A DNA stretch of 63,846 nt, filler included, from Kipferlia bialata (taxonomy: Eukaryota), in the NCBI GenBank assembly GCA_003568945.1. It is 5 parts of 5 records of this genome, joined end to end, with 100 filler letters (N's around TTAATTAATTAA, not from the genome) between each part and the next. Parts side by side here need not be neighbours in the genome. Positions count along the whole stretch, not along the records: positions 60,085 to 63,846 come from BDIP01000575.1; 4 more parts are not named here. One strand, given 5' to 3'. Shown here piece after piece: positions 2,547-63,846 of this stretch. The position numbers and the translations under genes are program-made. Under the pieces are notes generated by a model. That model was given only the letters and a program-made list of their open reading frames with translations, searched no databases and had not been told where the DNA came from. Numbering within the stretch: the first letter of the stretch is position 1; every line of letters begins with the position of its first letter.

Positions 2547-5500
2547 AACGGCCAATTTCACGTCCTGTATGCTGGAAGCAACCCTACTCCTGTGTCTGTC
2601 TTCGGTCTCTCCACGTCTACCCCCCTCCGGTGGGTGTCTGTACCCCTCTCTCTCTCCGACAAGGTACATACACTGGTACAGGGAGATGCCTCTATCATCC
2701 TGGGCCATGCAGCATCTGGCTGTGCTGTGGTGGCACTCTCTGGTGGGCATGGGTCTGTAGATATCCTGTCTCTTGACCGGTCTTCTCCCAAGGTCTCTCT
2801 CCTGCACCTCTGCCGCCTGGCTAGGCCTCTTGGGTACAGTGTGGGTAGGGTGTCCATGTGTGGCCCCAGGGTCTTGCTCTCTGACGCCTCCGGTACCCAT
2901 GTCACCTCTGTCAATGTACGGACAGGGAGTGCCATGGGGTGTGGCATCAGGGGGAGGGCACACATGCCATGCAGTGTCGGTACAGTGTGTATTGCTGATC
3001 ACAACCTCCACGTTGCAGTCAGGGATGGAACATCGGTGTGTGTGGCACATACCGTCTATCTATGCTGTGTGAGGGATGATGCTCTCATGTGGGTAGTAAG
3101 GGGGGCTCAGAGGACCACTCTTTCAACCACACCACTCTCCCCACTCCTCTCCACCCCCCAACTACCTGCCGCGACAGAGTCTCATGCCGTCATACACCCT
3201 ACTCCCCACAGATGGGTTCACAGAGAGAAGGGAAAGTCTCCCTATACCCTCTTATGCCACACAAGCTCTGGTTGTATTGGTGTATCCATTGGCGTCGATC
3301 TCTCCTTAGTTGGGCTGGGTGTGTATGACCCATCTAGGGGGTGGGAGCAGTTGGTGGAGGTACCAACAGGAGTGGCTGTCCTTCCCCATGTGTCGGGAGT
3401 GCCACTGTACCTGGACCACTGTGTATATGCATCTGTGCTTGGCCGACTGGTTAGAGTGGACCTGGGTGCAAGGAGTGCCTCAGCCATATGCCTCTCCCTC
3501 TCTGCCCAGCCACGAGTGGCCGCTGACATGAGTAGCCTGATACTACAGACACCCAGTGGCATCAGACGCTACCCTCTCAACAGGGACATGAGAGTGGGAG
3601 CCCTTACAGTAGAGAGAGTCTCTGAAGGGAGTGTGGCTGGGGTGTTGGTAGGAGATGCTGTGGTTAAGGGTGTAGCAGGGGCAGAGTCAGTGTACTACCG
3701 GGTGGACAGGGGTGTGTGGACACCGATGGATGTAGTCACGTCCTCCAAGACCCGACACAGTAGAGTACAGGTCACATCTCTCCGTGACTTGGTTACCCTC
3801 CTAGAGAGTGGCGTGGCTGAGTCTCTGGATGTCAGTGGTACGGAGGAGACCTGTCTCCATCTAGACACCGCTCTGTCCAACCGGTGTCTAACTGACTGTA
3901 CATTCATGCACTGTAGTATCAAGTCTGCTACCAGAGCTAGTTTCACTGGGTGCTCTTTCGAGGGATGTACTATGGTCAACGCTGGCCTGTCCCAGATGTC
4001 TCTCTCTGCATCTTCTCTCACTGAGTGTGACCTCTCTGGATCAGACCTCAGTAAGGCTACCCTGACCGATGTTAGGTGTAAGGGGGGTAGGCTTCAGGGG
4101 TGTTCCTTCAAGGGCACTTCCCTAGCCAGTGTTGACTTCGGTGGCATTGCATTGAGTGGGTGTGACTTCACACTATCCACATTCACCTCAGTCAGTGTAG
4201 ATGGGTGTGACATGTCAGAGGTGACACTCAATGGGTCTGACCTCAGTGGGTGTAGGGGCCTGACAGTAGACACCCTCCACAGCGCAGTGTCTATAAGAGG
4301 GGCCATACTCTCTGGCCGTGACCTCAGTGGGTGGAATCTTAGTGGTCTCGACCTGACTGGTGTTGTGATGACAGGGACTAACCTCACTGCTTGTGATCTG
4401 TCAGGAACCACTGGTATGACGGCCACACAGCTACACGCAGCAGCGTCCCTCACCAAGGTATCTCTGAGTGGTATGCAGATGGGTGGGTGGGACCTCAGCG
4501 GCCTATGTCTTTCTGGTGCTGACCTGAGTGGCTGTGGTATAGTGGGGGCCAACTTGAGGGACACAGACCTGACTGGTGTCTCGCTCTGCGGTGCCACAGG
4601 GTTCTCAGCAAAGCAAATGAGAGATGCCAAGAGTGTGAGTGGTGTGATGGGTCTTGAGAAGTGTAACCTGACTGGTGCTGACCTCAGTGCCATTGACCTC
4701 TCGGGGCTTAACCTCACTGGCGCCAACCTCTCTGACACTGCTCTCAAGGGGACTAACATCACAGGCACCACTCTTACCGGTGCCATTCTTGTCAATGCTC
4801 CTTTATGTGAGACCATTGGTCTCAGTTGGAAACACATTCGTAATGCTGGCTGCTTAAAGGGAGCCAACTTGGCCAAGAGATGTCTGACGGCTCAGGACAT
4901 GAGTGGTCTAGACCTCAGTGGTGTCTGCCTCGACGGGTGCAATCTGAAGGGAACCAACTTCACAGGGTCCATTCTAAAGGATGTCAGTCTTGTTGGCGTT
5001 AGTCACCTCAATCCCAAGCAGCTGCGCTCTGCTAAGGATGTGATCGGACTCAACATGTCCGGTCTCAATATGGCCTACTGGGATATGTACGGTCTCGACC
5101 TATCACGGAGCAACCTGTCCAATTGCGACCTTTCCGGTGCCACTCTGACCGGGACAGTCCTCACCGGAGCGGACCTTTCCCACTCGACACTTAGACTTAT
5201 TATTGGTCTCACAGAGCGTCAGCTGCGGGACGCTACATCTCTTTAGGGGTGTGACATCAGCGGCATGGATCTCTCTGGTTTCAACCTATCCCACTTAGAC
5301 TTGTCCAACGTTAACCTGACCCGCACTCGTCTACACAATGTCAACTTCAGAGAGACCATCCTGCGAGGAACCTCTTTGACTTCATCCAGTGTGCATGAGA
5401 CGGTTCTCTCCCGTGCTGTTCTGCCCGACACTGCAGTGCCAATGTTAGTGGATAAAATTCGGGGCATAGACTGTGACACTTTCTTCCTCATTGTTCCTGT

Positions 5501-12100: not shown

Positions 12101-15100
12101 GACGGCTCGTCTAAGACGAGTATTGATAATACCTGGCAGTGGTCGAACAGGTCACTAGAGAGCGACGTAGCCAGCCTCTGCGGGGTCTGGGGCTGGTGTT
12201 CACTGAATATGCTCGATCGTTGGCTCACTATAGCAGCGATCAGGGCAGCCAGTGGACCCTCCCCTTCCTTGGTAGCAAGGTATACAAAGTGGGAGAGAGG
12301 GGCATCAAGAGGGGTGTCTAACACCAGTCGTCCTGTGGGTGTCACCTTCCCATCACTGATGCAACCGTGTAGCTTCAGAGACTCAGTGGTGTTGGCCAGA
12401 CGGTCTTGTGTCACTGTCTTTGACAGACAGGCAATGTCCTGCGTCTCTATGCCCAGCTGGGTCAGATGCAGAACGCTGTCGTCAAGGCTGAGGTCGGTGT
12501 CTGCCATTGATTTCTCTCTTGGAGCGCATTGGGAGGATGAGCATAGTCTCAGGCTGTGTCCATCAGCCGACCTATCAAGCATGCCACCTCTCTCAGACTC
12601 CTCCACTGAGGCAGTGGTCTCACTACCAGCTGTCGTAGTGGGAGTAGTGCCAGTGTCAGACCCTCCACACCGGATGACATCCTCTGCTACAGACCCCTCT
12701 CGCTTAGGTAGAGTGAATGCCCTGAAGAGGGTTGGGAGCTCAACCACCCTGGCCATGTACTCCAGTATGGATGTAGGAGGGTTAAGGCTGCAGAGTACTA
12801 CCACGTAGACATCAGGGCGCTTCACCAGTAGAGAGCGTGCCAGTGTCAAGACCATATGCGCAGATACAGAGAGACTGGACACCTCTATCACCAGTGCACT
12901 GTACTGCGAGAGGGTAGGGTCGGACTTGCACTGGTCCAGGAAGGCTACGGGGGAGAGAGTACTGGAAGTACTGTCACGCAGTGGCATGCCACGTGCTGCG
13001 GTCTCAGAGGAATGTACATGCGCCACCCCCTTGGGGAAGGAAGTGTCCTCCATGGCAAGCGACACAAGACTGCAGTCGGAGACTGGAGTGAGAGGGTGGA
13101 GTCGTATTCAGTCAGGAAACAGATAGGAGTGTCATATGGGTCAGATGGGGATAGATACTGGTTCAAGTAGACTGTGACACACCTGCGTCCACTGCCACCA
13201 CCACAGCCCTCTCTCCCTGTAAGTACGTGACGAGTGATTCTGCAGAGGCCAACTCCTGACTGGGTCCTAGGGTACTAACTGGGGCAGGCTTGGGTGTGGA
13301 AGGACTCCCTGGGATGAGGGAGAGTGTATAATAGACATATCAGTTCCTTTACGCATGTAGTCACAGTATGCGATACCTTTGGGTACAACTGGTGTCGTCT
13401 GCCGCACTGGTGGCGCCAGTCGAGGTGTCTCCCTAACCAGTCCCTCCTGCCACTCAAGGCTGAAGGGTGTGTGGTTGGGACAGGACCCCGGGTTGATACT
13501 GGAGAACTGGTTCTTCTTGAGGTTTCGAGTGTGCACCAGGAAGCGCTGCCCATCATAGAGCACCACCCAGTTGTAGTCCCTAGAACTACCCTTGCGAGCC
13601 TTGGCCCTGATCATCTGGTTCTTGATGCGTGCACAGGCATCCACAATGTCTCCTTCCTCTCCGTCTGCACCCTTCAGTGCCAGGGGTACATCGACCCCTT
13701 CAAGGACAGTGTATGCTCCAACATATCTGTCAAAGGCGAGACCGTGCTTGGAGACAAGGTCATGGTCAGTCTCCCACTCCAGCCTGTGGAGGTATGCCTG
13801 AATCACTTGCAGAGAGACATACACGAACCCGTACTGCCCAGTCACATCAAAGACTACTGCCTGTACAAGCTCTCTGTCCTCGAACACTTCCCAGTCAGGC
13901 AGGAGGTCTGCAATGTATGACCGTACAGCCTGTTCGGCAGCAGCAGCGTCGAAGAAACGGGTGAGGGCCGTGAAGAACACTGGACGGCGGTCAGCCACGA
14001 CGGAGAATGTAGAGACCTCCCCAGTGTCCGTGTCCTGTGTCGATATCTGCCGCGCCTCCATGACTGCATGCAGGTAGTCGTCAGTCTCACTGACCCTCAG
14101 CACCTTGTAGGTGGATGAGCCTGACACACCTGGGTCAGCGACAGGGGTCACTGTGAGTCTACCCATGTCCACCTCTGGGACAGTGGCCAGAGCAGACTTG
14201 GCAGCAGCCACTAGGTCGTCACGAGCCTTCGGACCCTGGTAGAGTAGGTACACTCCCTCACTGCGGGTAGCACGTGCCTTGCGGAAGAGGTTGAAGCGGA
14301 ACGACACGAGCTCCACCCCATAGTCTAGGGGCACATACTCGTTGGCGTGCTCCAGGGAGAACTCCCGCCTGTGCAGTAGGTGGTAGTCGTGAGGGGACAC
14401 AGAAGTGATCATGAGCCGGCGTGATGGCTGCACCACTATGTCGAGAGTCTCTAGCTCGGGGAGGTCAGCCTTGACAGTGGCCTCTAGGGCGCCGGCCAGG
14501 TCCTCTATGTAGTTGACGAAGCGGATCCCATTGAGCACCTGCCGTCCATCCAGGCTGATGGTGACCTCGATCTTGAGGGTCACAACGCACTCACCCCCTT
14601 GCATACGCAGGTTCCTGGGGGTAGGAAGGGGGTAGGTAATACACAAAGTATCCATATGTAGGCAAATACAAATATTCAGACATATACATGAAGATTCAGG
14701 GAGAACTAATCCACCCATCTGTATACATGCATATACATATATATGCATGTTGATCCTGTCCATACCTGGTGACGTCCCTGCTCAGGTTCAGCTCCTCGAC
14801 ATCAGGGGGCACATCCACCTCTGCCACCCCCTCATCCTTGTGGGTGTATGGGCACTGGGGATCGAGGCACCGCCTCTTCCGGCATGTACCAGGGCTGAAT
14901 ATCCTGCCATGCAGTACGGGGGGCAGCACTAGCCTGGTGCTGGAGCCCCTGAAGCTCTTGGCAGGTGTCCTCCTGGAGGTGTTGCCACCCCTGACCTTGC
15001 GTGTAGGGGTAGGGGTAGGGGTAGGGGTAGGGGTAGGGGTAGGGGTAGGGGTGGACGCATCTCTCGTATCGCCAGGATGGGCTGTCTTCTTCGGAGTGGA

Positions 15101-15341
15101 TGCATGACCACCTCCCTCGTTAGTGATAGGGTTCCAGCCCGGGGGATGGATGAAGGGGCACTTGGGCCTTGTGCACCCCAGGCCGGCCTTGCACTCACAC
15201 TGAGTAATGTGCTGGATTGTGATGGTGTTGTTGCAGAATCCAGTCTCAGTCTCCACCGGGAGGTCGGGCCTGCTCAGCCACTGTCCATCTACTACGTACT
15301 TGTACAGGTGGGTGCCGGGTGGGAGAGAGACATAGATGGTC
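6105..15341 (-). CDS. Predicted single multi-exon gene: CBM48 (C-terminal half), CCCH zinc finger, degenerate DEAH/HA2 helicase region, RING-IBR, Ser/Thr protein kinase
   Basis: Manual splicing at GT...(CTNAC-N3/4-YAG-type) introns keeps one frame across ORFs 14696-15256, 13267-14763, 12064-13065, 9117-12059, 8800-9051 and the kinase exons, ending at TAA at 6105. Confidence 0.65.
6630..8566 (-). CDS. Ser/Thr protein kinase domain (multi-exon)
   Basis: LGKGSYGMV, KFAVKVI, HRDLKGANIM, IIDLGLCK, GTPTVRAPE, ADVYACGVLFYE, ERPTAASAL. Confidence 0.92.
9330..9730 (-). CDS. RING1-IBR zinc-binding region (RBR E3-ligase-like; no RING2 seen)
   Basis: CVYC..CGHPFCKGC..CAKC, then CVVPDC..CDSCHHSVCVQC..HEGIGCEEY. 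Confidence 0.8.
12036..12500 (-). CDS. DEAH-helicase HA2/OB-like region, degenerate
   Basis: SLKLHGCISDGKVTPTGRLVLDTPLDAPLSHFV...SDLFDHCQ/AYREW resembles the DEAH HA2 pattern. No intact Walker A or DEAH motif was found upstream. Confidence 0.55.
15007..15052. repeat. (GGGGTA)n hexamer repeat encoding a Pro-Thr linker on the minus strand
   Basis: TPTPTPTPTPTPTPT in ORF 14696-15256. Confidence 0.9.
15210..15341 (-). CDS. CBM48 / AMPK-beta-type glycogen-binding domain, C-terminal half
   Basis: TIYVSLPPGTHLYKYVVDGQWLSRPDLPVETETGFCNNTITI matches the LPPG-YKF-VDG-W...G-NN pattern. Confidence 0.8.
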
Positions 15342-15545: not shown

Positions 15546-16107
15546 CTATCCAGTTCCTCCTGCCTCTGTCTGTATGACATGGGTGCAGATGGGGGTAGGG
15601 GGTGGGCAGTGATGGGCCTGGCACGGCGGAGGTAGGTGTCAGTCACTTGCCTAGTATGTTAGACAATATCCATAAGACATATATACGTCATATATTCATA
15701 GGTGTCGGTCACGTGCCTAATGGAAGAGTGGTATATGTTTATCACTTCATGAACACTGTATCTAAAACAGATATATATACCTCCCCGGCTCCTGCGTAAC
15801 AGCTGGAGTGTGTGTTATGGGTCAAATATACATATACGAGGCTGCTCATTACTCTTACTATGACATATATACTATCACACTCTGTACCTCCCCGGCTCCT
15901 GTCTGACTGCCGGTGTGTGTGTCATGGGCCTCTGACCAGACACACCCCGGGCAGTGCCAGGTCTGGAGCCTTAAGGTGAGATGTATGAATGACCCAGTAC
16001 AATATTGAGAGAGCTGGCCACTGCCAGGTGTCTAACAACAAAACGATAGAATATATACCTGCGGTTATGGGTCTGTGCTGCAGTCTGGCCTTGTCCAAAG
16101 GGTATGT

Positions 16108-16144
<37 letters not shown>

Positions 16145-17994
16145 TAAAGAGACAGGTACAAACCTGCCGTTATGGGTCTGTGCTGCAGTCTGGCCTTGGC
16201 TGTACTGGCCCTGGACCCACCCCTGGACCTGGAGGGCATGATGCCACCTAGTCCAGCACCTAGAGGTAAGGGAGAGGTATTTATATATACTGGAGAGAAA
16301 GGGGGGGGGGGGGATGTGGACCTGGAGGGCATGATGCCACCCAGACCGGCGCCTGAAGGTTAATGCATATACATACATACATACACATGGATATATATAT
16401 AGAGAGAGAAACAGAGAGAGATAGAGGGCATGATGCCACCCAGACCGGCGCCTAGAGGTCAATACGTACACATATACATACATATACTAGTAGATATGTA
16501 AGTGAGTGAGAGAGAGAATCTGGAGGGCATGATGCAAGGGAGAGATAATGACACAAACACTAAGGTATACATACTGGTTTTAACATACACTTATCAGTTA
16601 TGTCCTACCTAGCTCACTGAGTTCACTGTCACTCCCCTATATGAACTATATATATACATATACTAGGGTATGTAGTATATGTAGTATACATGTATATCCA
16701 TACCTAGCTCACTGAGCTCACTGTCACTGCCCTCGTCCTGGATGAAGTCGTCATCATCATCCATGACACCTGAGAGTGAATATGGAGAGAGAGAGAGAGT
16801 ATACGTAGTATATAGTGTGTAATACAGCATATATTATATATTACCTAATTCAGCGAGCTCTGCCTCGTACTCATCGTACAAGAGGTATATACTACACCAT
16901 ATATACATATAGGTATGTATATATATACTGAACTATACCTAGCTCAGCCAGCTCTGCCTCGTACTCATCGTACTGGGGGGACTTGGGGGTCTCCTTGGCC
17001 TAAGAGTCAGAGATATAAACTCACAATACTGTAATACAATTGAATATTATATAGAAACAAAACCGCAATGGTGTTTATGTTGTCTGCTCATCATAGACAT
17101 CCTCAGATATGTATATCATTACAATAGATATATACATACATATATGTACATATATGTATATATATGTATAGTTTACGTGTATACACACCTTTGGCATCTT
17201 TGCTGTCTGCTCATCGTATGCATCCTCATCGTCATGGGGGATGGGGGCAGTCACAGGCCTTGAGGTTAGTACATGCAAATATACACTAGCATATAGGAGG
17301 GTATACATTCGTATTGTATAGGAGTGTGAATATTACATGCATCCTCATCGTCATGGGGGATGGAGGCAGTCAGAGGCCAAGAGGTAAGTATTGGTATTTG
17401 TAAATACAGTATATATGCTCAGACACACAGATATACACAGTATACTGTGGTGATACCTATAATCGAATCCTCCTGCCACCCTCACCACCCTCCTGGGTAT
17501 CCTGTTAAATTCTTAATACATATATTCATTATAGAATATCCTACTAATAATATAATGTTTACCTGTAGTCAAACCCCCCTGCCACCCTGACCACCCTCCT
17601 GGGTATCCTGTTGTGGCTGGTCTCCACTAGGGGTCTGCCTGAAGGGTGAGACACATATACACACATATATACATGTATAGAGAGAGAGAGACAGACAGAG
17701 ATACTGGTGTGGCTGGTCTCAACTAGGGGCCTCCCTGGGTGAGAGTGGGTAAATATAGGTGTATGTGAATGTATGCATATATATATATCATGTGTGAAGA
17801 CACATAGGTTCACAAAGAGTCACTCAATTTGGAGTGTAGTAGTGACAATCACCTGCATTGCCTGGCTTCCTGTATCTAACATTTGGGGACTATATGGCAT
17901 ATATATACATATACATACACACGTATCTCTATTCTTATACTCACCTGCATTGCCTGGCTTCTTGCCCCTCTGACCCTGGGCAGCAGTATCCATC
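15546..17994 (-). CDS. Internal exons of a low-complexity protein of unknown function (recurrent RPITA/RPVTA/RPGTA motifs, acidic stretches)
   Basis: Phase-compatible short exons, e.g. GRPLVETSHNRIPRRVVRVAGGFDYR, PVTAPIPHDDEDAYDEQ, AKETPKSPQYDEYEAELAEL, KARLQHRPITAG. Confidence 0.65.
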
Positions 17995-18230: not shown

Positions 18231-35801
<17,571 letters not shown>

Positions 35802-50248: not shown

Positions 50249-51068
50249 TAGGTGATAGCCACCCTCTGGTGAGTATCTAGGCGAGCATAGACCACACCCA
50301 CATACCAGGGTGGATGGGTTGTATGCTTAGGTCAAGATAGGGTCAAGTGGTGATGGAGTGTAAAACTACAATAACAATACTACACAATGATATCGGTGGC
50401 TCTATATTTGTACAATATTCATTATACATCCCATATGTCGAGGATATGGAAGATACAGTAATGTGGCAACTACTTACTTCTGTCTGGATGCTCTATCCAC
50501 GTTATCCCTGTGCGTCTACGCATCTCTTTGAGCAGCGCATCTAGGGTCTCACATCTCAACTCCCACAGACCGGGAGGGAGACCTGGAGGATAAGGACCAA
50601 GCACATAGGTCCTCCCATAACACATACATATGCATAGACTATACTGGATACTTTACATATGCGCTTGTACACACCCTGTATTAACACACGTAGATACCTG
50701 AACTTGGTCTGTATGACTTTTACACATCCTTACTATGTCCGAACTGTTAGACTTATATACCTGAACTGGGTCTGTATGGCCCTGGTCCTCCCATCACACA
50801 AACACACATATATATAGTATACTGTATACTATTCTTTATACACACATACACTCTTGCTATGTCCGAATTGTTGGAGTTAGATACCTGAGCTGGGTCTGTA
50901 TGGCCCTGGTCCTCCCTTCACACATACATATGCATAGAGTATACTGTATATTATACATATGCACCTATACACACACCCTTACTATGTCTGATGTATACCT
51001 GAGCTGGGTCTGTATGGCCCCGGTCCTCCCTTGTGGTAGTGGTACAGGTACTTCCGAGAGTCGATCAT
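50249..51068 (-). CDS. Small spliced gene of unknown function starting MIDSRKYLYHYHKGGPGPYRPSSG/LPPGLWELRCETLDALLKEMRRR
   Basis: ATG at 51068 after an in-frame stop. The phase-1 donor at 50998 joins the only open frame of the exon at about 50478-50582. The 3' end is uncertain. Confidence 0.5.
50608..51030. repeat. Tandem array of exon 3' end + donor + intron head (spacings 114, 124 and 63 bp)
   Basis: ACCTGA(G/A)CT(G/T)GGTCTGTATG with the exonic part starting at 50999, 50885, 50761 and 50698, and similar intronic sequence between copies. Confidence 0.9.
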
Positions 51069-51547
51069 TGGAAGATGTGGCAGTTAATAAGAGATACAGA
51101 GAGACAGTGTGGTTGAAGCCCTCTAGACTACAATCCTTCAACTTGAGGGTCTCAAGAATCGGAGAATCGGAGAAGGGATTGACCAATAGAGAATCTCCTA
51201 ATTGTGAAGAAGTCTCAATTAAGCTTACCCAAGGCATTGTTAGCAATGCTGTCATAGCATCGTCTGAAAGAGAAACAAGAATACAGATGTGATAAGTACC
51301 ACAGCCGTAGAATTTATGCAAAAGACTGAGTCATATATGCTATATAATGAGTCAGTTTCCATGACCGATTCGATCGGTATGTCCAGCAGATACCAGTGAC
51401 AGGAAAAGACTCAAAGCAACGTGTGTTGAGTCAAATCTATTTGACAATGTCGCATGACCCACGAGTGACATATCAACCCTTGTCACACACACATTACATG
51501 AACTGCTCCATCCACTCGTTGCCTGTCACGAGACCTGTGCTGCACAC

Positions 51548-53373
51548 TATGTAGGTGTGGCCCTCCTTCTCCCCAAGGTGACGGAAGGCGGCAACCTCAC
51601 TCCTGGTGACACCGCCCTGCTGTCAGCTATGGCGTAATATTTGAATTATAGACTATCACAATACACACACACACAAATGGAAAGAGAATATTTGCATATA
51701 TACCCATATATATATATATATATATGCAGGTGTGCTGAGTACGTACCACAATGAACACCACACTGGCTGTCTGATCCCCGTAGGCGTCTCTCTCTCCCCT
51801 GGGCCTAGACGCCTCTCTCCCACTCTCGCTATCCTTCTCAGAGAAGCCACGGCTAGCACCCTGGTGGTCAATTAAAGTCAAACAGAGTCATTAATAGTCA
51901 ATATGGGTACCTTGAGTCCCTTGAGAAGTCTCCTGACCTCCCCCCTCTCCTTGAGGAATGAGGTGATGCCACTGGCAATGTTGTCCTGTAGTGAGAAAAG
52001 GGGGAAGAGAGAGAGAGAGAGAGACAGAGACAGAGATGGGAGGAAGTATATAGAGAAAATGTATAATTTCAAAAGAGAGAAAACATTTACATATGTATAT
52101 ATATATACCTTGAGGTTCTCGCTATCTCTGGTCCTCTCTCTCTCGAGGTCTCTCTCCCTCCCTCTCTCCAGCTCATGCATGGCAGACACAACCCTGGGAA
52201 TAAGGGTCTAGACGGAGAGAGAAAGTAAGGGTGCAGATGGGGAGAGAAGGCCACCAAATGAATACCTGGTCGTCATGGGTGCACACACATATATAGACGT
52301 ATACATTTATGCTCAAAACATATATACACATACTATTGTAAAAAGTATAATGTACACTAATAATCATTGTATGTTATACACTACTATATATACCTTGTTG
52401 TCATGGGTGCGTAGTGGCTGTACACACACATATATATATATTAATATATGAATATATATTCTCCATACATTATATATGTATAGTATATATATATATATAC
52501 CTTGTTGTCATGGGTGCATAGTGGCTGTAGACGTATCCCTCGCCCTTGGGCTTAGAACTGGACCCATCCCCTGGGGTCAGTATATACGAATTCACATTGA
52601 ATATTGTCTGGCCTCGTAAACATAAATGCCCACATCGTGTATATGATACATAATATATCTATACACAAATATATTATTGCAGAGACTAAACATTCTGCAC
52701 TCACCCTCTGAGATTGCTGCCACGTAGTCGTACTTGGTCAGGTGGTAGTGCCTCCTGGGGGTAAGGGAGGGGAAATGGTATATGTATATACATAAATACA
52801 TATGTATATACATATATATACATGTATATAATACTATGTGTGTTAAAACAAGGAGTTAAGTCAGGTGGTAGTGTCTCCTGGGGGTAAGGGAGAGAGAAAG
52901 AAAGGGGGAGAGAGAGGGAGAGAGAGAGAGAGTGGTAGTGCCTCCTGGGGGAAGATGGTAATTGAGACTATATTTCAGAAAAGAGAGAGTAACGACAGTC
53001 GCTGAATCCAGTGACATTATGACACCAAAGCAATAAAATATAGTCATATACTAATTACTTACTAACTCAGACAGACCATACAATACCCTATCCTACCTAG
53101 TCTGGTCCCACTTGTCCCCATAGCCAAGGGGGGGCACGGGGATCCTGAGGGTAAGGATACTAGTGCATAGAGATACGAGTATATATATATATATATGAAG
53201 AGTCCAGGGGCACAGGGATCCTGGGGGTGGGAATACTTCCATACTCGTATTATCCTATGTACAGAGATAATGGGTGGGGGATCCTGAGGCTCAGAATACT
53301 ACCATATTTATATATATCCTATGTAAAGAGATAATGGGTGGGGGAGACAAATAGGGAGAAGAGAGAGAGGGGG

Positions 53374-53408
<35 letters not shown>

Positions 53409-55096
53409 CTACCTGGAGTCCTGCAGGCTCAGCAGGCCAGCAATCTCAAGGTTCCTGAGGTGAGGGCTTGTGTGGAATGAACAGAACAGAAAAGTATAGT
53501 ATACTGAACAAATAGTCCAATTCGCTGTACCTGAGGGCACTTGCTACTGATGCCCCATAGCATGACACTACTAGACCCACGGCACGCTGCATGGTCTTCC
53601 TGTCAAGGCCTCCATCCACGACAGACAGGAGGCAGAGGGCCCTGGTATTAGAGGAAACGACACACAATAGTCAATATATACAGACGAATATATATATATA
53701 TATTGTGACGTATATCTAGGCCTCCATCCACCACAGACAGGAGGCAGAGGGCCCTGGGCGTTAGTATACACATACATGACATAATAATACACATATGTAT
53801 ACATAGACAGAGAGAGAAAGAGAGAGGATATCTAGGCCATCATCTACTAGCAGACAGAGGGCCCAGGATATGATAAAGCAGGACGGATCAATTAAAACAC
53901 TGGTACACAACTTCACATGTATATATATATATATACTACATACCTTAGCACTCTAGCCTTGTGCTTGGGTGACATGGTGGGGTTGGTCTCATCCTCTCTC
54001 TCTCTCCCTCTCTCTCTCAATATATATATACATATAAACATACATATATTCTATAAAATACCTCAGCACCCGAGCCTTGTGCTTGGGTGACATGCTCGGG
54101 TTGGTCTCGTCTGCCATACAGGCCTGGATCACATCCTCCAGTCTATCAATGTACTTGTTGCCCTGGGGTTAGCATTTTAACAACCTAGTAACAATAATTA
54201 CAGTGCAGTCAGATTGTAAATCACTCTCTAATCTGTACAATGTACTTGTTTCCCTGGGATTCGCATGTCACCAACTGAGTAAATACATAACACATATATC
54301 TGTATACACGATCCCAATACCTTCTTCTCCCCCTTCAGCAGGATCGATGACTCGTACTTGTGCAGTGCGGGCAGGAGGGCATCCTTCTTGACAAGCTTCA
54401 GGATGTCCCTGACAAAGGAGGCAAAGTTAGTAAGAACCTTGGATCAGATACATATAGACAAAGAGAGAGAGAGAGAGAGAGAAGGATGTCTCTGACAAAG
54501 GAGGCAAAGTTGGTAAGGACCTACAGTAAGAGCAAGAGAGAGAAAAGGATGCCCCCAAATGACCGAAGGAATAACAGGTAACGTCTTTAGAGTAGACACA
54601 CAGAGAGCGAACTATCGTTCTCATAATAGTAGTACATACCTGCACGTGTATCCTGCTGATCAGCCTCTGCTGTCCCTGCTGGGCAGATGAGGTCTCGAGG
54701 TCATTCTCCAGGCCCTGGGGGTTAGCTGCACTATATGACTCGCGCTCATATGTATCACATTATGATATGACAAAAATCTCTGAATCTCGCTCTATAGGGT
54801 CATTCTCCATATCCCCTGGGTGCAAGAAGTGTCATTGATAGCAAAGACAAAAGGAATGACGACTATTCCGCCATTATATCCACTAACCTGCACCCTCTTG
54901 AGTATGGCAAAGTATGGGTCGAGGAATACAACTATAACGAGGATTCAAAATAGTATATTAAGAGTTGGAAACATATATATCTATATCTCTCTATATACTC
55001 CCACCTGCACCCTTTTGAGTATGGCAAAGTAGGGGTCGAGGTCAAGGAAGTGGTTGTCCTGGGGTGAGATGACATATATACACATACATACATATA

Positions 55097-55135
<39 letters not shown>

Positions 55136-56949
55136 ATATATAACATATATATAAATATGTACAACAAACAACAGTATATATATGTGTATGTGCACTTGTA
55201 TGTGTATGTGTCTAGGTGGTTGTCCTGGGGTGAGACGACATAATAAGGCTAACTATAAATACATTTGAATGAAAATGTTGATATAAACTCATACCTGTAA
55301 GCTGTAGAAGACATACTACTCTCCTGCGTGCTTTCATAATCACAACAACACAAGTATCCAAAGATCTCGTAAATCCATACCTGAATGCTGTGGAAGATGG
55401 GGTTGTTGTTGTTGATGCAGCAGGAACGGGTCTTGTCAGCAGAGACCTGGGGTGTCAGAAGGGAGATACACACACATAAACACATATATATATCCATAGA
55501 GAGAGAGAGAGAGGGAGATAGGAAGGAACGGGTCTTCTCAGCAGAGACCTGGGGGGGAGGAAGGGAGAGAGATACGTGGACACGATACAGGGAATAGGAG
55601 GCACCAAGAGAGAGAGAGAGAGAGAGAGAGGGTGTGTGTGTACCTGCAGGTGACACATGGAGTGTGCACAGTTGGCAAGGGACAGGTCATGCAGAACACC
55701 TGGGGTAAAGGGGGGTAGAGAGAGAGAGAGAGAGACAGGTCATGACCTATGTCTTACTATTTACACTTCTCTGCCTCCTACCTCTGATTGTGTCCTCTGT
55801 GTGCAGAATGGCCTACCTTCTCTCACATACACACACACAGTCTCTCTCTCATTCTATATGTCTCACTATATATATATATATATCTGCCTGATACCTGTGA
55901 TTGTGTTCTCTGTGTGCAGCATGGACACAGGATCAAGGGCCCTGAAATAAGGGGTGTAGAGACAGAGAGCATACAATATACATTGAATAGTTGGAGGGTA
56001 AAGGCAAGGAGTCCGGGACCCCGTACATATGTATAAATTTGAATATACACATATTAATATATCTATATATATAATCATATATCCAAATATATATACATGC
56101 CCACCTGTCCACGATGTACAGGTCGATGCCGCTGCCCTCCATCTCTCTCTCCCTGCTCTCGGCAGAACCAGAGTCACTGGTGTAAGGGTGTAGATTGGAG
56201 GGAGAGAGATAGAGACACTCGGCAGAACTAGAGTCACTGGTGTAAGGGTGAAGAGGGAGGAAGAGAGAGAGATAGAGATTCCTCCGCACACATCGTACAG
56301 TGTGGCGGTTTATATAATGTGAAGGCCAAAACACTAATATTTGAACACACTGGATATTACTCATATAACCATACACATGCCCCTGGCTTCTGTGTACACA
56401 TGGTGCAGTTAAGATAGTGAATATAGTATGATTTACGATAAATATGAATATATACAACATGAATATATACGATGAGAGAGATGAGTAAGAAATATAAATA
56501 ACACATATACATACCCCTTGGCCTCTGTGTACACATCGTGTAGCTTCGATGCAATGTCACCCTTGGCCATCACTCTGTCGAAGCCTGGGGTGGGTAAAGG
56601 GTGTAGGGGGAGAGAGAGAGCCTCAGACAACAACTACGTGTGTCTAGGTACTTCCGTCGATGTATCTCTCTAACTGTCTGAGGCCCAGGGCACTGTGAAT
56701 GTGTGTATATATATATTAATATTCATATATATATATCATATATACATATATACCTCCATCAATGTATGGGGTATATATATAAATATACCTCTTTTCACAC
56801 ACATACTTATATTTAGACATGAATGTAAAATATATATACCTCCGTCGATGTATCTCTCTAACTGTCTGAGGCCCAGGGCACTGCTGTAGAGGGAAGAGGT
56901 GTTGGTGTCGGTGGCAATCTAGGATGACGGGTGGGTAATAGTGAGAGAT

Positions 56950-57000
<51 letters not shown>

Positions 57001-59811
57001 ACTGCTGTAGAGGGAGGAGGTGTTGGTGTCGGTGGCAATCTGGTACGTGAGTAAAAGTAATATTTAGCTTGAATACATATATGCAATTACAGAGTCCCAG
57101 ATGGAGGAGCAACACACCACTGTAGCAAATATATACGGACCTCCCTCCATGTCATGTGCTATGAAGGGGGCATCCCACATATACACTTTATATATACACC
57201 ACTAGTAAATATATATACATAGACCAGGTATATACCTCCCTCCACACTGTAGTGCCCATCTCCAGCACATCTCTGTCATGTGCTATGAAGGGGGCATCCC
57301 ACACAGCCACTCTAGGGCCACTGCCTGCAAGGTGGTCGGAGACACGCTGCTGGGATGAGATATACTAATATGTATATATATGGAGAGAGAGAGAGAGAGA
57401 GAGGACCTGCATAGTGGTCGGAGACACGCTGCTGGGATAAGAAGTGTACTATCTTCCGTGTATCTATATATAGGGAGAGACGTGCGAATATAGTGAGAGA
57501 GAACGGCTGCCAGGTGGTCGGAGACACGCTGCTGGGATAAGAGGTGAATATATATACATATGCATTGGCTGTGAGAGAAATACAGCATGGGGCCACTGCC
57601 AATATATACATATTTATGTACATGCACTCACCCCGTAGTACTCTGGCACGTACTGGATGAAGACTACCAGCCAGTCAGCCTCAACGTCGCAGATGGACTG
57701 GGGTCAGATACATTGATAGCGGCAAAGATGAAAATGTAACCAGAGAGTATATATATAAATATCTTCCATACAATGCTTGGTTATATAATTATGACAGCCA
57801 GTCAGCCTCAACGTCGCAGATGGACTGAAGTTAGACACATAGATATATAGAGAGAGAATACAGAACTAGCAGCCACAGGTGGACTGAAGTGAGAAGCTCC
57901 ACAATTGAGAAATAGTATGGGAGACTAGACCTCAAAGAATACTTCACATTGACTAATGTACTATAAAAAGCAATATACCACGAATTGTGACAGTGTATTA
58001 TTCACTGATGTCTGTCTATAGATAAGGAGAGAGAGATGACCTCCATCTCCGTGAAGCACTGTATGAGGCAAATATTGTTATGAAAACAGAGAGTGCATAC
58101 ATCTTGTATTCAATATACTTGATATATATATACCTCCATCTCCGTGAAGCACTGTGTGATACACAAGTACCCAAAGAGAAAGAGTTCAAAATGGTATAAC
58201 AATTTACATGTCAATATATATATCATAAGATGATGTATATATCTTTATATATATACAATATATATATATACCTCCATCTCCGTGAAGCACTGTATGAGCT
58301 TGGACACGTTCTCCCAGGTGGGTCTGAGGACAAATATCTGGGAATGAGGGTGTAGCGAAAGAGAGAGAGAGAGGCAGAGAGACAGAGCCTACCAGGTGGG
58401 TCTAAGGACAAATATCAGGAAATAAGGGTGTAGAGAGAGAGAGAGAGAGAGATGTAAATACATACCTTCTTCTTGACGTTCTTGGCAGCTAGTGGAACGC
58501 TGAAGGTGCCTCTGATGCCTGAGGGTCAGAGAGAGAGAGAGAGTAACAAGAACATAGAGGAAATACCCCGAAGTGGCATTCTAGGATACCGACAGTCACC
58601 ACACTCCCAGTCAATGAGTGTACATATAGCATACGTAAACATATTATTGTATACCCGTCTCGCTTCTGAACACCGGCCATCCTGGGGCAAGGTTGGTGGG
58701 GATCTCAGTGGCCCTGGCGTTAGGAATAATAATAAAGACCATACTATACTATGATATGTGATATACTCCATTAGACCCGTACTACTGTCAATGCATCACT
58801 ACCTCTGGCTGTCCCAGAAGTATAGCAGGCCCAGTGAAATGGGGAAACACATAAAGATACAACCATACATACTGCTGTATAACACACACTCTCTCTATAT
58901 ATATACAACCATACCTCTGACTGTTCCAGAAGTATGGCAGGCCCAGTGCAATGTGGGCAGAGAGGGAGGGGTCAAAGTAGAAGGCGGTGTTCTGGGGTAA
59001 GAGAGAGAGAAAGAGAGAGAGGGAGGTCAAATCGAAAGACAAGAGTGTTCTGAGGTTTGTCATTAATACATAAAAGAACACAGTACTGATACAATCACTG
59101 CTGAAAGGGGATTCCATTACCCTATACCATAGTGTATCAACATAGCACCCACCGTGAATGTGAACACTGTGCCCTGGTACCCCTTGAGACGCTGATAACG
59201 CTGGGGGACGTCCTAGGTGTTAGTTCTTTGTGATTCGAGGAGAGAGAGAGAGACAGAGAGAAAGTAAGCGAGATAGCGATGGTAGACATCCTTGGCAAAC
59301 TATACCGTGATGCATGGAGGATATGCAAACAAAATGCCATTCAAAGCTAATGTAAATAGTCTCTATACACTGTACCTTGGACACTATGTCTGTGAACTGG
59401 TTCAGTGCATCGGTGCGGTACCTGGGGGTAGGGGAGAGGGGGGGGGGGAGTATATAAGACACAATGTGTCCATATAAATATACAACTACTATATATACCT
59501 ACCATAGAGTACACCCATACCTGTCTGCCAGTGATACAGTGCTATGGAGACTACATCACACAATCAGTACATGATATTATGTACCTATCTATTCCTATGA
59601 CACTGTCTGCCAGGTAGGGCTGTCTCTTGCCAGCATGGTGGAAGGTGTCCTAGGGTAAGGGAGAGACAGAGGGGGAGAGAGGGAGAGACAGAGGGAGAGG
59701 GGATAAGGAGGGATGATCCCTGTACATCATAGTGGAAGGTGTCCTAGGGTAAATACATAATTATTTGTATGATACAGAGTGAGAGAGATTGTAGGTATGG
59801 TGGAAGGTGTC
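51548..59811 (-). CDS. Large multi-exon protein of unknown function; 5' end missing
   Basis: Phase-compatible exon chains, e.g. ATEIPTNLAPGWPVFRSETG/IRGTFSVPLAAKNVKKK/IFVLRPTWENVSKLIQCFTEME and DNHFLDLDPYFAILKRVQ/GLENDLE../VLTNFASFVRDILKLVKKD. Confidence 0.7.
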
Positions 59812-60084: not shown

Positions 60085-63000
60085 CATGAGCTGTGTCTGT
60101 CTTCACTCTCTCTCTATATATATATATACACATATATATGCATACACTAACCTCTGCCTGGCCACTGCCATGAGCTGTGTCTGTGCCCCCCCCCCCTCCC
60201 TTTCTCTCTCTCTCTCTATAAATATATATATCATTATATATATACTATATATATACCTCTGCCTGGCCACTGCCATGAGCTGTGTCTGTGCTCTCTCTCT
60301 CCCCCTCTCTCTCTCAATATATAAATTCAATATGCACTACTGACCTCTGCCTAGCCACTGCCATGAGTTGTGTCTGTGTGGCCGGTCTGCCACCCTGGCC
60401 CATCACAGACGGCATGGGCACACCAAGGGCCTTGTTGTAAGTGAGGCATGTATATATGTAAATATACATATAGAGGCAGAGAGAGAGAGACATACAGAGA
60501 GACAGAGAGACAGAGAGAGGGATGGTGACAGAGAGGGCACAATCTTACCTGTAGAGGGTGGACCTTCTTGCCCTGCTTCTTGGCCTCAGACATATATATA
60601 CACACACTATATTATATATCATATATACATATATATATGTTATACATATATACTATACCTGCAGTGGGTGGATCTTCTTGCCCTGCCTCTTGGCCTCGGC
60701 TATCTCGGCATCCCGCTGCAGCTTGATCTGGTGGTTAGACATCATATACACTGCTGATATAGTATACAATATGAAGTATTAAATAGTACACATATCTCGG
60801 CATCCCGCTGCAGCTTGAACTGGGGGGTGAGACACCCCATATTCGTATAGTATATGATATATATAGCCTATCAGATGCAGTAAATAGAATACAGTACAAT
60901 GTATACACCACCCGATTCACTAACATACCTTGTAGTCGGATGTCTCCATGAAGGCCCGTCCCACAGCACATACTTACACTATATATACTATACTATGATA
61001 TATCTATGATATGTATAATCTTATATATATATAGTGTGTGTATGTGTATATCCATATATGCATACCTTGTAGTCGGGTGTCTCCATGAGGGCCAGTCCCA
61101 CGGCTGCCTTCCTGAGGGCACCCACATCATTGGTGCCATCGCCACACATGAGGGGGGCCATGCCTGGTATTTGATATGTATATATACGCTAATATGGGGT
61201 GGGGGAGAAAAAGAGAGAGTTGACGCCAAATAGTATAGATAGATACTATAGTAGGGGGCCCATGCCTAGGGGTTAGAGGGAATGTATATGTGTACAGATA
61301 TATATATATATATATATATATATACGTATACCTGCATCTGCGAGCACTGCCACCACAGCAGCCTTGTACGGGGTATAAACACATATATTCACCCAACCAT
61401 AGATTCATACATCTATCTATATATATATCATATATCTATGTATATACATGTACATACACACCTGCATCAGCGAGCACTGCCACCACGGCTGCCTTGTTGT
61501 CGGGGGAGCACCTGGCAATGACCTGTGGGTAAGAGAGAGAGGAAGAGAGAGAGGGAGAGAGAGATAGATATTCACAACCAAGATGGCAGCATGCAACATC
61601 ATGTATATATGAATACCATACCTTGAGCAGGGGTGTCACGAGTGTGGCCAGGGCTGGGATCTCAAGGAGCTCGTCAAGCTTGTTGCCTGATGGTAAGGGA
61701 TAGTCCAAGGCTATAGAACTAACACCCACATATATATAGTATATCATACTATACTTCATCATGCACCTGATGCACACAGTGCCATCTCCCTGATGTCTGG
61801 CAGTGTCTGCCCAGGTGTGATAGTATACATGCATATACATATATATATATATATATATATACTATACCTGATGCGCATAGGGCCATCTCCCTGATATCAG
61901 GCAGTGCCTGTCCAGGTGTGATGGGCAGAGTGGCAGGGGGCACACTAGAGACACCAGGCTGCTCAGCATAGAGGGGCTCAAACACAGCACAGGGAGGGGT
62001 GGGTTTGGACTGTCATCAGCAACCGCGTAGAATAGGAGGATCGCGTAGAATAGGGGAATCGCGTAGAATACGTACCTTCTTGTCTGCAGGGTCTGCTGGG
62101 GCACCTGGAGTGACAGAGGCGAGGCGCATGACGGCCCTGCCCTTGGCAACAATGGCACTCTTCCTACACGATAAGGAGGGGTATCGCGTAATTGTGATAA
62201 TGAATATGCTATATAATGTATATATACCTGGCAACAGCTGCTGCTGTGTGCAGGTTGTCCCCTGTGATCATATATATATATATATATATATACTACATAT
62301 ACTACTACACCAATATAGTAATATACTACTACACCAATATAGTATATGTTGTATACCTGGCTACAGCTGCTGCTGTGTGGAGGTTGTCCCCTGTGATCAT
62401 GATATATATATATATATATACATATATACTACTAAATACACTACCATGCCAGTATAGTATATGTTGTATACCTTGCCACAGCAGCAGCTGTGTGGAGGTT
62501 GTCCCCTGTGATCATGATGCACCTGTGGCCACTGGACTTGAGGGACAGGATGGTCTTCCTGGAGGTAAGTCATCATCTATATCAATATACATATATACAT
62601 AACCACTATGATACTATAGGTTCTATATACACTGGACTTGAGGGACAGGATGGTCTTCCTGAGGGTCAGTGTACAAGATATATATATATCAATAATATAC
62701 CGCACTATGCATACGCAATATACACACCGCCATGTCATCTCTCTCTCTATATATATTATTATACATATACCTAGTGTCTGTCTTCAAGGGACTGTCACTC
62801 AGCATCAGTCCGGCAAAGACTATATTAACCTATACAACACATAAATACCTGATATATACTATGCATACTACATACATACTACATACATATATACCTAGTG
62901 TCTGTCTTGAGTGGACTGTCACTCAGCATGAGTCCGGCAAAGACTATATATATACAAACAACATAACTACTTCATAATATATGTATATTCTATATACTAT

Positions 63001-63696
63001 ATAGTATATACTATATATACCTAGTGTCTGTCTTGAGTGGACTGTCACTCAGCATCAGTCCGGCAAAGACTAGGTCCTTCTCAACCTCACTCCTCTTCTT
63101 GGTGCGGATGACGGCAGATCTGACGGTGAGACTAACTTGTCACTAATCGAGTAGAGTCTTGTCACACACCGTGTACCACTCACCCTGATGACAGGTCTGT
63201 CTGTCCACCCAGTCTATCTTACTTGTCACACAGTATAATGCAGTTAATATATAACGTGTAGCACTCACCCTGATGACAGGTCTGTCTGTCCTCCCAGTCT
63301 GCGGTAGGCAAGGGCAATCACCCTGTAGCCCTGTCTGGAATGGTCAGATATGAAGAAAACACCCATACATACCAAAATTATGATAGATAACAAAACAGTA
63401 ACTCTGAAGCCGTGTCTGGAGGGGTCAGAGAGAAGCCGACAAGGATGATATAGTATATCAAGAAAGATGATTGACATTTTCAGAGGGTATATATTTTCCT
63501 GGTAGCCTTGGACAGCTCTGCCTCGACCCACTCTGACACACAATAAGAGACAATATAGAAGGTATATATAGATAGGAAAGGTAGATATAACTAACCTGGT
63601 AGCCTTTGACAGCTCTGCCTCGACCCACTCTGGTGTCTCAGTGCACATGGTGGAGATGACCTCTGGTGCTCCCTGATTATTAATGTATATTCACTC

Positions 63697-63740
<44 letters not shown>

Positions 63741-63846
63741 TCGGGTGTCTCAGTGCACATGGTGGAGATGACCTCGGGGGCACCCTAGAGAGTTAGAGAG
63801 AGAGAGAGAGAGAGGGGGGGGGGGGGGGGGGGAGAGGGGAAGAAGC
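60085..63846 (-). CDS. ATP13A1: P5A-type ATPase (Spf1/ATP13A1-like), internal N/P-domain exons
   Basis: [66 protein letters not shown] (the P5A-type variant; P5B enzymes have GDGANDCGAL). Confidence 0.85.
62024..62070. repeat. Intronic 18-bp tandem repeat (CGCGTAGAATAGG..) x about 2.6
   Basis: Directly visible inside the intron between the ..ADKK and SKPTPP.. exons. Confidence 0.85.

Follow-up and report, generated by a model that had tools for sequence, protein, structure and literature searches.

A 69-nt exon of a P5-type ATPase gene in Kipferlia bialata is flanked by a partial copy of its start in the upstream intron and a partial copy of its end in the downstream intron. We read these halves, with a probability of about 0.5, as two separate intronic copies of exon ends, likely former working exon ends of strongly diverged alleles that reached the introns by out-of-register recombination. 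Such copies are called echoes here: a 5' echo consists of an acceptor and the start of an exon in the upstream intron, a 3' echo of the end of an exon and its donor in the downstream intron. Selection for protein is not expected in parts of introns that the mRNA skips, yet half of the exon edges of three genes carry echoes with a pN/pS of 0.20.

Genes and gene models

The window, i.e., the whole stretch of 63,846 nt that was analysed, consists of several K. bialata contigs joined by N-spacers, the last piece covering positions 60085-63846. Three genes, selected for having echoes, were modelled by hand: the ATPase gene, VPS33 and eight exons of a gene with an AMPK1_CBM domain.

60085..63846, minus strand: P5-type ATPase gene, part; 11 exons, echoes on 14 of 22 edges
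51494..59649, minus strand: VPS33 (Sec1 family) gene; 28 exons, echoes on 23 of 56 edges
15546..17994, minus strand: gene continuing into an exon with AMPK1_CBM and CCCH finger; 8 exons, echoes on 11 of 16 edges

The exon chain of the ATPase gene includes protein P0001, labelled 'P-type ATPase, subfamily V, partial [Kipferlia bialata]', letter for letter. The best profile was TIGR01657 P-ATPase-V with an E-value of 1e-45, below the full-length cut-off because the gene is partial, and the named relatives in a protein search were of the ATP13A1/PDR2 type. The gene with the focal exon is a P5-type ATPase of K. bialata and, judged by these sequence matches, probably P5A-like, which upholds the identity proposed in the sequence-only reading. 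P5A and P5B are distinguished by a motif in TM4; the TM4-coding part of this gene lies outside the window. The VPS33 model was identical to P0057 in 665 of 671 residues. The third gene includes the previously reported 'nest' at 17457-17742; downstream of its echo-rich exons (15546-17994), the exon at 14771-15340 (minus strand) encodes an AMPK1_CBM glycogen-binding domain followed by CCCH-type zinc fingers. Echoes lead gene finders astray: an automatic predictor mistook them for exons, and only 8 of the 11 ATPase exons were exact. Elsewhere in the window, an intron-free region at ~3850-5400 (plus strand) contains short degenerate repeats, which by eye resemble a pentapeptide-repeat coding region. 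The intron consensus of all modelled genes was TCTCCCTTAACCCCAG for the acceptor and CAG|GTATGTA for the donor, and a branch-point-like motif was present 4-8 nt before the AG. The acceptor resembles the fused branch point-acceptor of diplomonads and Trichomonas, as far as the accessible text of PMC6679479 describes it, but is more variable.

The focal exon and its neighbourhood

The features are listed in the direction of transcription.

61253..61265, minus strand: short 5' echo of the GDGTND exon, skipped
61066..61163, minus strand: upstream exon with GDGTND, spliced straight to the focal exon in the contig
60929..60967, minus strand: 3' echo of the GDGTND exon, decayed (L/R, L/F, P/S and one silent change), skipped
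60793..60819, minus strand: 5' echo of the focal exon, first 27 nt copied, reading FKLQRDAEI after ...CTCACCCCCCAG
60728..60792, minus strand: spacer, 65 nt, 31% GC, ending in the used acceptor
60659..60727, minus strand: complete, used focal exon, 69 nt, 23 residues, phase 0-0, between ...CTAACCACCAG and GTATAG
60588..60658, minus strand: spacer, 71 nt, 17% GC, TA-rich, beginning with the used donor
60549..60587, minus strand: 3' echo of the focal exon, last 39 nt (13 residues) copied, before GTAAGA
60431..60548, minus strand: ordinary-looking intron, 118 nt, from the echo donor to the next acceptor
60345..60430, minus strand: next exon, ALGVPMPS...AVARQ, its start directly after the focal exon in the spliced contig
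60257..60290, minus strand: first 3' echo of exon 60430-60345, silent CAG for CAA and GCC for GCT
60152..60185, minus strand: second 3' echo of exon 60430-60345, exon part as in the first echo, intron flank different
60085..60100, minus strand: third 3' echo of exon 60430-60345, truncated by the contig end

Re-reading of the minus strand reproduced exactly what had been described before, that is, the letters and coordinates of the echoes, the complete exon between them and the one missing codon. The listed changes (two silent, R/K, I/V and I/F) were confirmed letter by letter, as were the three downstream echoes of the neighbouring exon, with CAG for CAA and GCC for GCT in the first two. The 5' echo (60819-60793) differs from the exon in a single letter, ATC/TTC (I/F), the 3' echo (60587-60549) in four: AGG/AAG (R/K), ATC/GTC (I/V), CCA/CCT and CTG/CTA. 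Codon 10 of the exon (GCC) is the only codon absent from both halves. Each echo retains an intact splice site, a branch point-AG acceptor in the 5' echo (score 8.6 versus 10.7 at the real acceptor) and the donor GTAAGA in the 3' echo (10.1 versus 11.5 at the real donor); splice-site scoring detected no acceptor-like site before the 3' echo in the spacer 60588-60658. The focal exon is placed in a variable charged insert after GDGTND. The nearest relatives found for this comparison are 33-39% identical and give no usable alignment in this gap-rich insert, and a comparison of the residues F, K and V was uninformative.

Sequencing run X2 is tentatively regarded as RNA because its contig is without introns; rare forms are invisible in contigs. 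In this contig (2159 nt, depth 1137), 61066-61166 is followed directly by 60658-60727 without any other letter, and at each loose end the sequence goes on into the start of a complete neighbouring exon. It agrees with the complete exons at 13 of 13 positions where echoes differ (10 tabulated, 3 read by eye from a loose end). Over its three junctions four echoes of two exons are skipped, and according to the loose end a fifth. At 85% likeness only one X2 contig matched the stretch examined, which did not include the 3' echo of the focal exon and its spacer, and none matched an echo; run X1 gave a single 35-nt piece there, an unlike one.

Frequency and distribution of echoes

Self-comparison of the window yielded dozens of direct repeats 60-300 nt apart, concentrated in few genes. 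A search anchored at splice sites found 60 echoes on 48 of the 94 exon edges of the three genes. Wrong exon-intron pairs, 3878 in number and searched in the same manner, yielded 9 hits: echoes are far above chance. They are 7-55 nt long and lie 60-250 nt from their own exon end. The AG was kept in 25 of 28 5' echoes and the GT in 29 of 32 3' echoes, in total 54 of 60. A comparison of exon ends in AG with live 3' echoes (22 of 39 versus 1 of 7) was not significant (p=0.10). Arrays of 2-4 copies occur, including the identical sister echoes 60290/60185 and 16354/16459, and stops, dead splice sites and an internal deletion testify to decay in place. The deletion, of ~29 nt, is in the 3' echo of VPS33 exon 9 at 57150-57190 (minus strand), a clear case of such decay. 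At 50608-51032 (minus strand), outside the counts, an exon end is present four times with partly alignable flanks and scrambled sub-repeats, which looks, from the sequence pattern, like a younger local array.

The spacers between exons and echoes have a median length of 71 nt (minimum 41 nt) and a GC content of 25-38% versus 58% in exons. They are rich in TA, GA and CT runs, and a dinucleotide-type repeat was found in 69 of 140 spacer windows versus 32 of 247. Echo density is regional and associated with TA/GA-rich introns. In the same window, a BEACH-domain gene had 4 echoes on 3 of 130 edges in an automatic model; model-free scans agreed that repeats are scarce there. This gene (18242-35801, minus strand) is very large, with ~65 exons in the automatic model and Pfam Beach on two of them, and is nearly echo-free except for its end near a contig break. 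Its introns are short (median 74 nt) and contain few dinucleotide runs.

Tiling of the two halves

The two halves had been described as a 'split-exon nest', which implies a special structure. Fourteen exons have echoes on both sides, with overlaps from -46 to +11 nt, and in 3 of the 14 the halves tile within 5 nt, where two permutation nulls expect 2.5 and 3.1 (P=0.47 and 0.64). The lengths of left and right echoes were uncorrelated (rho -0.07; 14 exons). For this count the echo length of VPS33 exon 9, which has the internal deletion, was set by hand; the exon at 35801 is not counted, nor is an old, gapped echo near 59046. Tiling as the mark of one event was rejected, since 3 of 14 is the chance expectation. 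If two echoes arise independently and each covers roughly half of an exon, they will often meet, so that a 'nest' is one 5' event plus one 3' event. The tiling of the focal halves is a coincidence. The special nest was hence abandoned, with the tiling at chance level and the complete exon in the spliced contig. What proved to be of interest in the earlier description were the silent and conservative changes, a signal that is gene-wide and not local to the nest.

Codon-preserving divergence

The nearest echo per edge (n=48) differs from its exon in 72 silent versus 42 replacement codons. Codon-level counts, 89:42 or, for the nearest echoes, 72:42, were preferred to the site-level count of 95:45, which scores a few double-hit codons as silent. 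If the echo evolved neutrally and the exon next to it tolerated silent changes alone, the silent share would be 0.41 (p=1.6e-6 versus the observed share). Comparison of echo with echo (11 pairs) gave 14 silent and 5 replacement letters at an expected silent share of 0.25 (p=1e-5). Twelve of the 60 echoes, those with at least three silent codons, account for 48 silent and 4 replacement changes; 11 of the 60 carry only replacements. The replacements are milder than random (BLOSUM 0.18 versus -0.47, n=40, p=0.006), and R/K and I/V at the focal exon fit this. Directional GC change was absent among the silent changes (31 S>W, 26 W>S). The intronic copies thus bear the mark of purifying selection for protein.

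Silent changes were more frequent towards the splice site, with 36 of 162 codons in the splice-site half versus 21 of 173 in the junction half. The polarity ratio of 1.83 compares with 1.14 in simulations with even divergence and the same detection (P=0.008); replacements in the same echoes had no edge polarity. At the inner junction the echo is often identical to the exon, and the junctions are sharp, with an identity beyond them of 0.23-0.28. Gradual erosion of longer copies was rejected, identity past the junction being at background. Two observations were made in the ATPase gene. The end of the TGDN exon and its copies, at 62472, 62357 and 62228 (minus strand), have GTG, GTA and GTT at one silent site. 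At 62472/62357, 19 nt of intron are common to the exon and the first of its echoes, and four silent sites beside the donor differ between them.

Alternative explanations

The same recombination might have had another donor, namely a diverged homeologue or paralogue (from an old hybrid, a polyploid or a long-asexual homologue) that has since been lost or homogenised, instead of a segregating allele. Exon edges with 3-5 silent changes in a row do look deeper than ordinary polymorphism, and the flanks do not align. However, divergence between echoes (14 of ~69 silent sites) equals that between echo and exon, three states at one site (GTG/GTA/GTT) point to more than two lineages, and word-limited, weak searches found no second Kipferlia copy of the ATPase or of VPS33. 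We regard this donor as unlikely, although it is the alternative that fares best.

Plain local tandem duplications, decaying neutrally or homogenised with their own exon, would owe the silent bias solely to the evolution of the exon. The spacing of 60-250 nt, the arrays of 2-4, the identical sister echoes and the replacements-only echoes agree with such an origin, which is known from amphioxus (PMC3087553, in its accessible part). Neutral duplicates predict a pN/pS of at least 0.5 and no silent bias between echoes, in contrast to the observed 0.20 and 14:5. Homogenisation does not help, as conversion in cis would erase silent differences in both directions and replacements in one, leading to an enrichment of replacements. 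Flanks should also match as well as the exon parts, but mostly do not: exon parts are 0.92-0.94 alike, intron flanks 0.42-0.52, and 8 of 60 flanks exceed the 95th percentile of unrelated pairs. The mean flank identity is nevertheless above background (0.52 versus 0.37 and 0.42 versus 0.34), hence some copies are plain local duplicates. As the general explanation plain duplication is disfavoured, with a small probability.

That the echoes are translated, in a minor or stage-specific mRNA that joins the halves or by a non-canonical or recursive splice that uses the echo end, is improbable. Such use would account for the codon-preserving divergence and the mostly intact splice sites; rare forms are dropped from contigs, and a joined match located at a repeat was lost. 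There is even one in-frame GT-AG route through both halves (60819-60790 + 60584-60549). Its inner sites, however, score -2.9 and -2.6, below all 64 ordinary sites (weakest donor 2.0, weakest acceptor 3.2); among the in-frame GT-AG routes between the flanking exons only the complete exon has two strong sites, and the echo acceptor or the echo donor combined with the real focal exon leads to a stop or a frameshift. The spliced contig uses complete exons, most echoes are without a partner half, tiling is at chance, and some echoes contain stops. The acceptor score of echo ends is not superior to that of exon ends (-3.1 versus -3.3, p=0.56). By motif scores, the level of the weakest acceptor is attained by 7 of 29 live echo ends versus 18 of 51 ordinary exon ends, and a donor scoring at least 1.7 would be restored in 5 of 25 5' echoes. 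Recursive splicing with the echo end as ratchet point is unsupported by these acceptor counts. A mutually exclusive or alternative exon was rejected as well, the inner ends being without usable sites and the contig having only the complete exon. The branch-AG pattern was found in 0 of 30 spacers but in just 15 of 32 real acceptors, and is hence a weak indicator. As 21 of the 60 echo sites score as high as the real site, site strength alone does not decide the splice choice.

An assembly artefact, in which haplotypes or strains that differ in their introns would have been joined head to tail, is improbable on indirect evidence. In its favour, a silent bias is typical of differences between two haplotypes, the spacers are of low complexity and contigs end among echoes. 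Against it, run X1, which may be the source sample of the window, contains 0.92 of 389 sampled 31-letter words, above the ceiling of 0.86 if all 18 junctions were false (p ~0.001). A live second haplotype also fits poorly with stops, deletions and dead splice sites and with as many as four distinct copies; the RNA contig matches the complete exons at all 13 sites, and the identical stretches at junctions range from 7 to 43 nt without a peak at one word length.

Comparison with known systems

Mutually exclusive duplicated exons are tandem copies with silent and conservative differences; they are whole exons with both splice sites, and both are used. The echoes of K. bialata, in contrast, have one site and are skipped. 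The closest known system are the 'mirages' of amphioxus in Adh3, the globins BflGb6 and BflGb9, troponin C and PGBD5, which the accessible parts of PMC3087553 and PMC3902484 describe as tandem copies across an exon-intron boundary. These comprise 5' or 3' ends, many keep AG or GT, splicing is normal, and unequal crossing-over has been proposed for their turnover; a further feature is a copy number that varies between haplotypes or cells. Like mirages, the 60 echoes span the boundary and lie in tandem in the adjacent intron at 60-250 nt, both 5' and 3' boundaries are copied with AG and GT often kept (25/28 and 29/32), and normal splicing is undisturbed (one spliced contig, three junctions). Units of BflGb6, however, are 81-100% alike over their length, intron included, according to the same texts, whereas the intron flanks in K. 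bialata reach 0.42-0.52. Mirages, as described there, are single loci; in K. bialata, a fornicate protist, three genes have echoes on roughly half of their exon edges. A further difference from mirages as described is the silent bias measured in the echoes, together with its edge polarity; the word 'synonymous' is absent from the available text of PMC3087553. The echoes thus behave like mirages without being typical members, because the intron parts are unlike.

In Schizophyllum commune, with parents 14% apart, 51 of 71 crossovers were in exons and 6 in introns (PMC4209137, accessible part). Exons there are pairing islands, as the mechanism proposed below needs. The crossovers are in register and leave no duplicate, and the part of the article available describes no echoes. 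In the model of Rogers, as discussed in the accessible text of PMC3087553, introns are gained by duplication of sequence that bears a splice site. Likewise, a local duplicate with a splice signal enlarges or creates an intron, but in K. bialata the duplicate remains within an existing intron. No report of Kipferlia echoes or of edge polarity was found in the literature search, which ran outside subscription journals and supplements, and 'duplicat', 'heterozyg' and 'ploid' are not mentioned in PMC5874029. Going by the sequence comparisons, the echoes are mirage-like and dense in some genes, and their divergence is codon-preserving and edge-polarised.

Origin of the echoes

Exchange between diverged alleles would proceed in three steps. 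A short duplication across an exon-intron boundary would first create an echo, which may be tolerated provided that a splice site is missing at one of its ends and that length and AT-richness let the spacer pass for intron. If short exons are the only places at which alleles pair, such an echo would then offer a second landing site. Crossover or conversion between it and a working exon end in a diverged allele would leave a composite copy: the inner part would match the neighbouring exon, and the diverged allele would have supplied the outer part together with its splice site and intron, which is the pattern observed. Neutral decay would later add replacements, stops and dead splice sites. For cases like 62472/62357, the shared flank together with four differing silent edge codons would require conversion of the working exon edge and counts against a plain crossover.

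The silent divergence of ~0.2, with runs of 3-5 changed third positions, would need a diversity matching the most variable eukaryotes known, and the literature search gave no diversity data of that level for K. bialata. A second allele or isolate was not found among 54 longer proteins and 80 metagenome loci or in a VPS33 search; P0001 forms a cluster of 1, and the closest relatives found share 25-62% identity, over short parts. As the second allele was not found, the required allelic diversity is an assumption and the weak point of the allele-exchange reading.

We tentatively consider a wider possibility, less probable than the reading itself, that exon-edge exchange is a running genome-wide process in which introns together with 10-15 nt of flanking exon are swapped between deeply diverged alleles and the displaced ends accumulate as echoes. 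If true, this would explain intron turnover in K. bialata, and one genome would be a dated record of past alleles, revealing that a free-living fornicate recombines cryptically and is extremely diverse. The choice of splice sites becomes testable, as a reduced spliceosome, with 87 of 174 proteins found (accessible text of PMC6679479), skips intact decoy sites 60-130 nt away. If allele exchange holds, recombination and past allelic diversity would be readable from a single protist genome, with a bearing on sex and population size in free-living fornicates.
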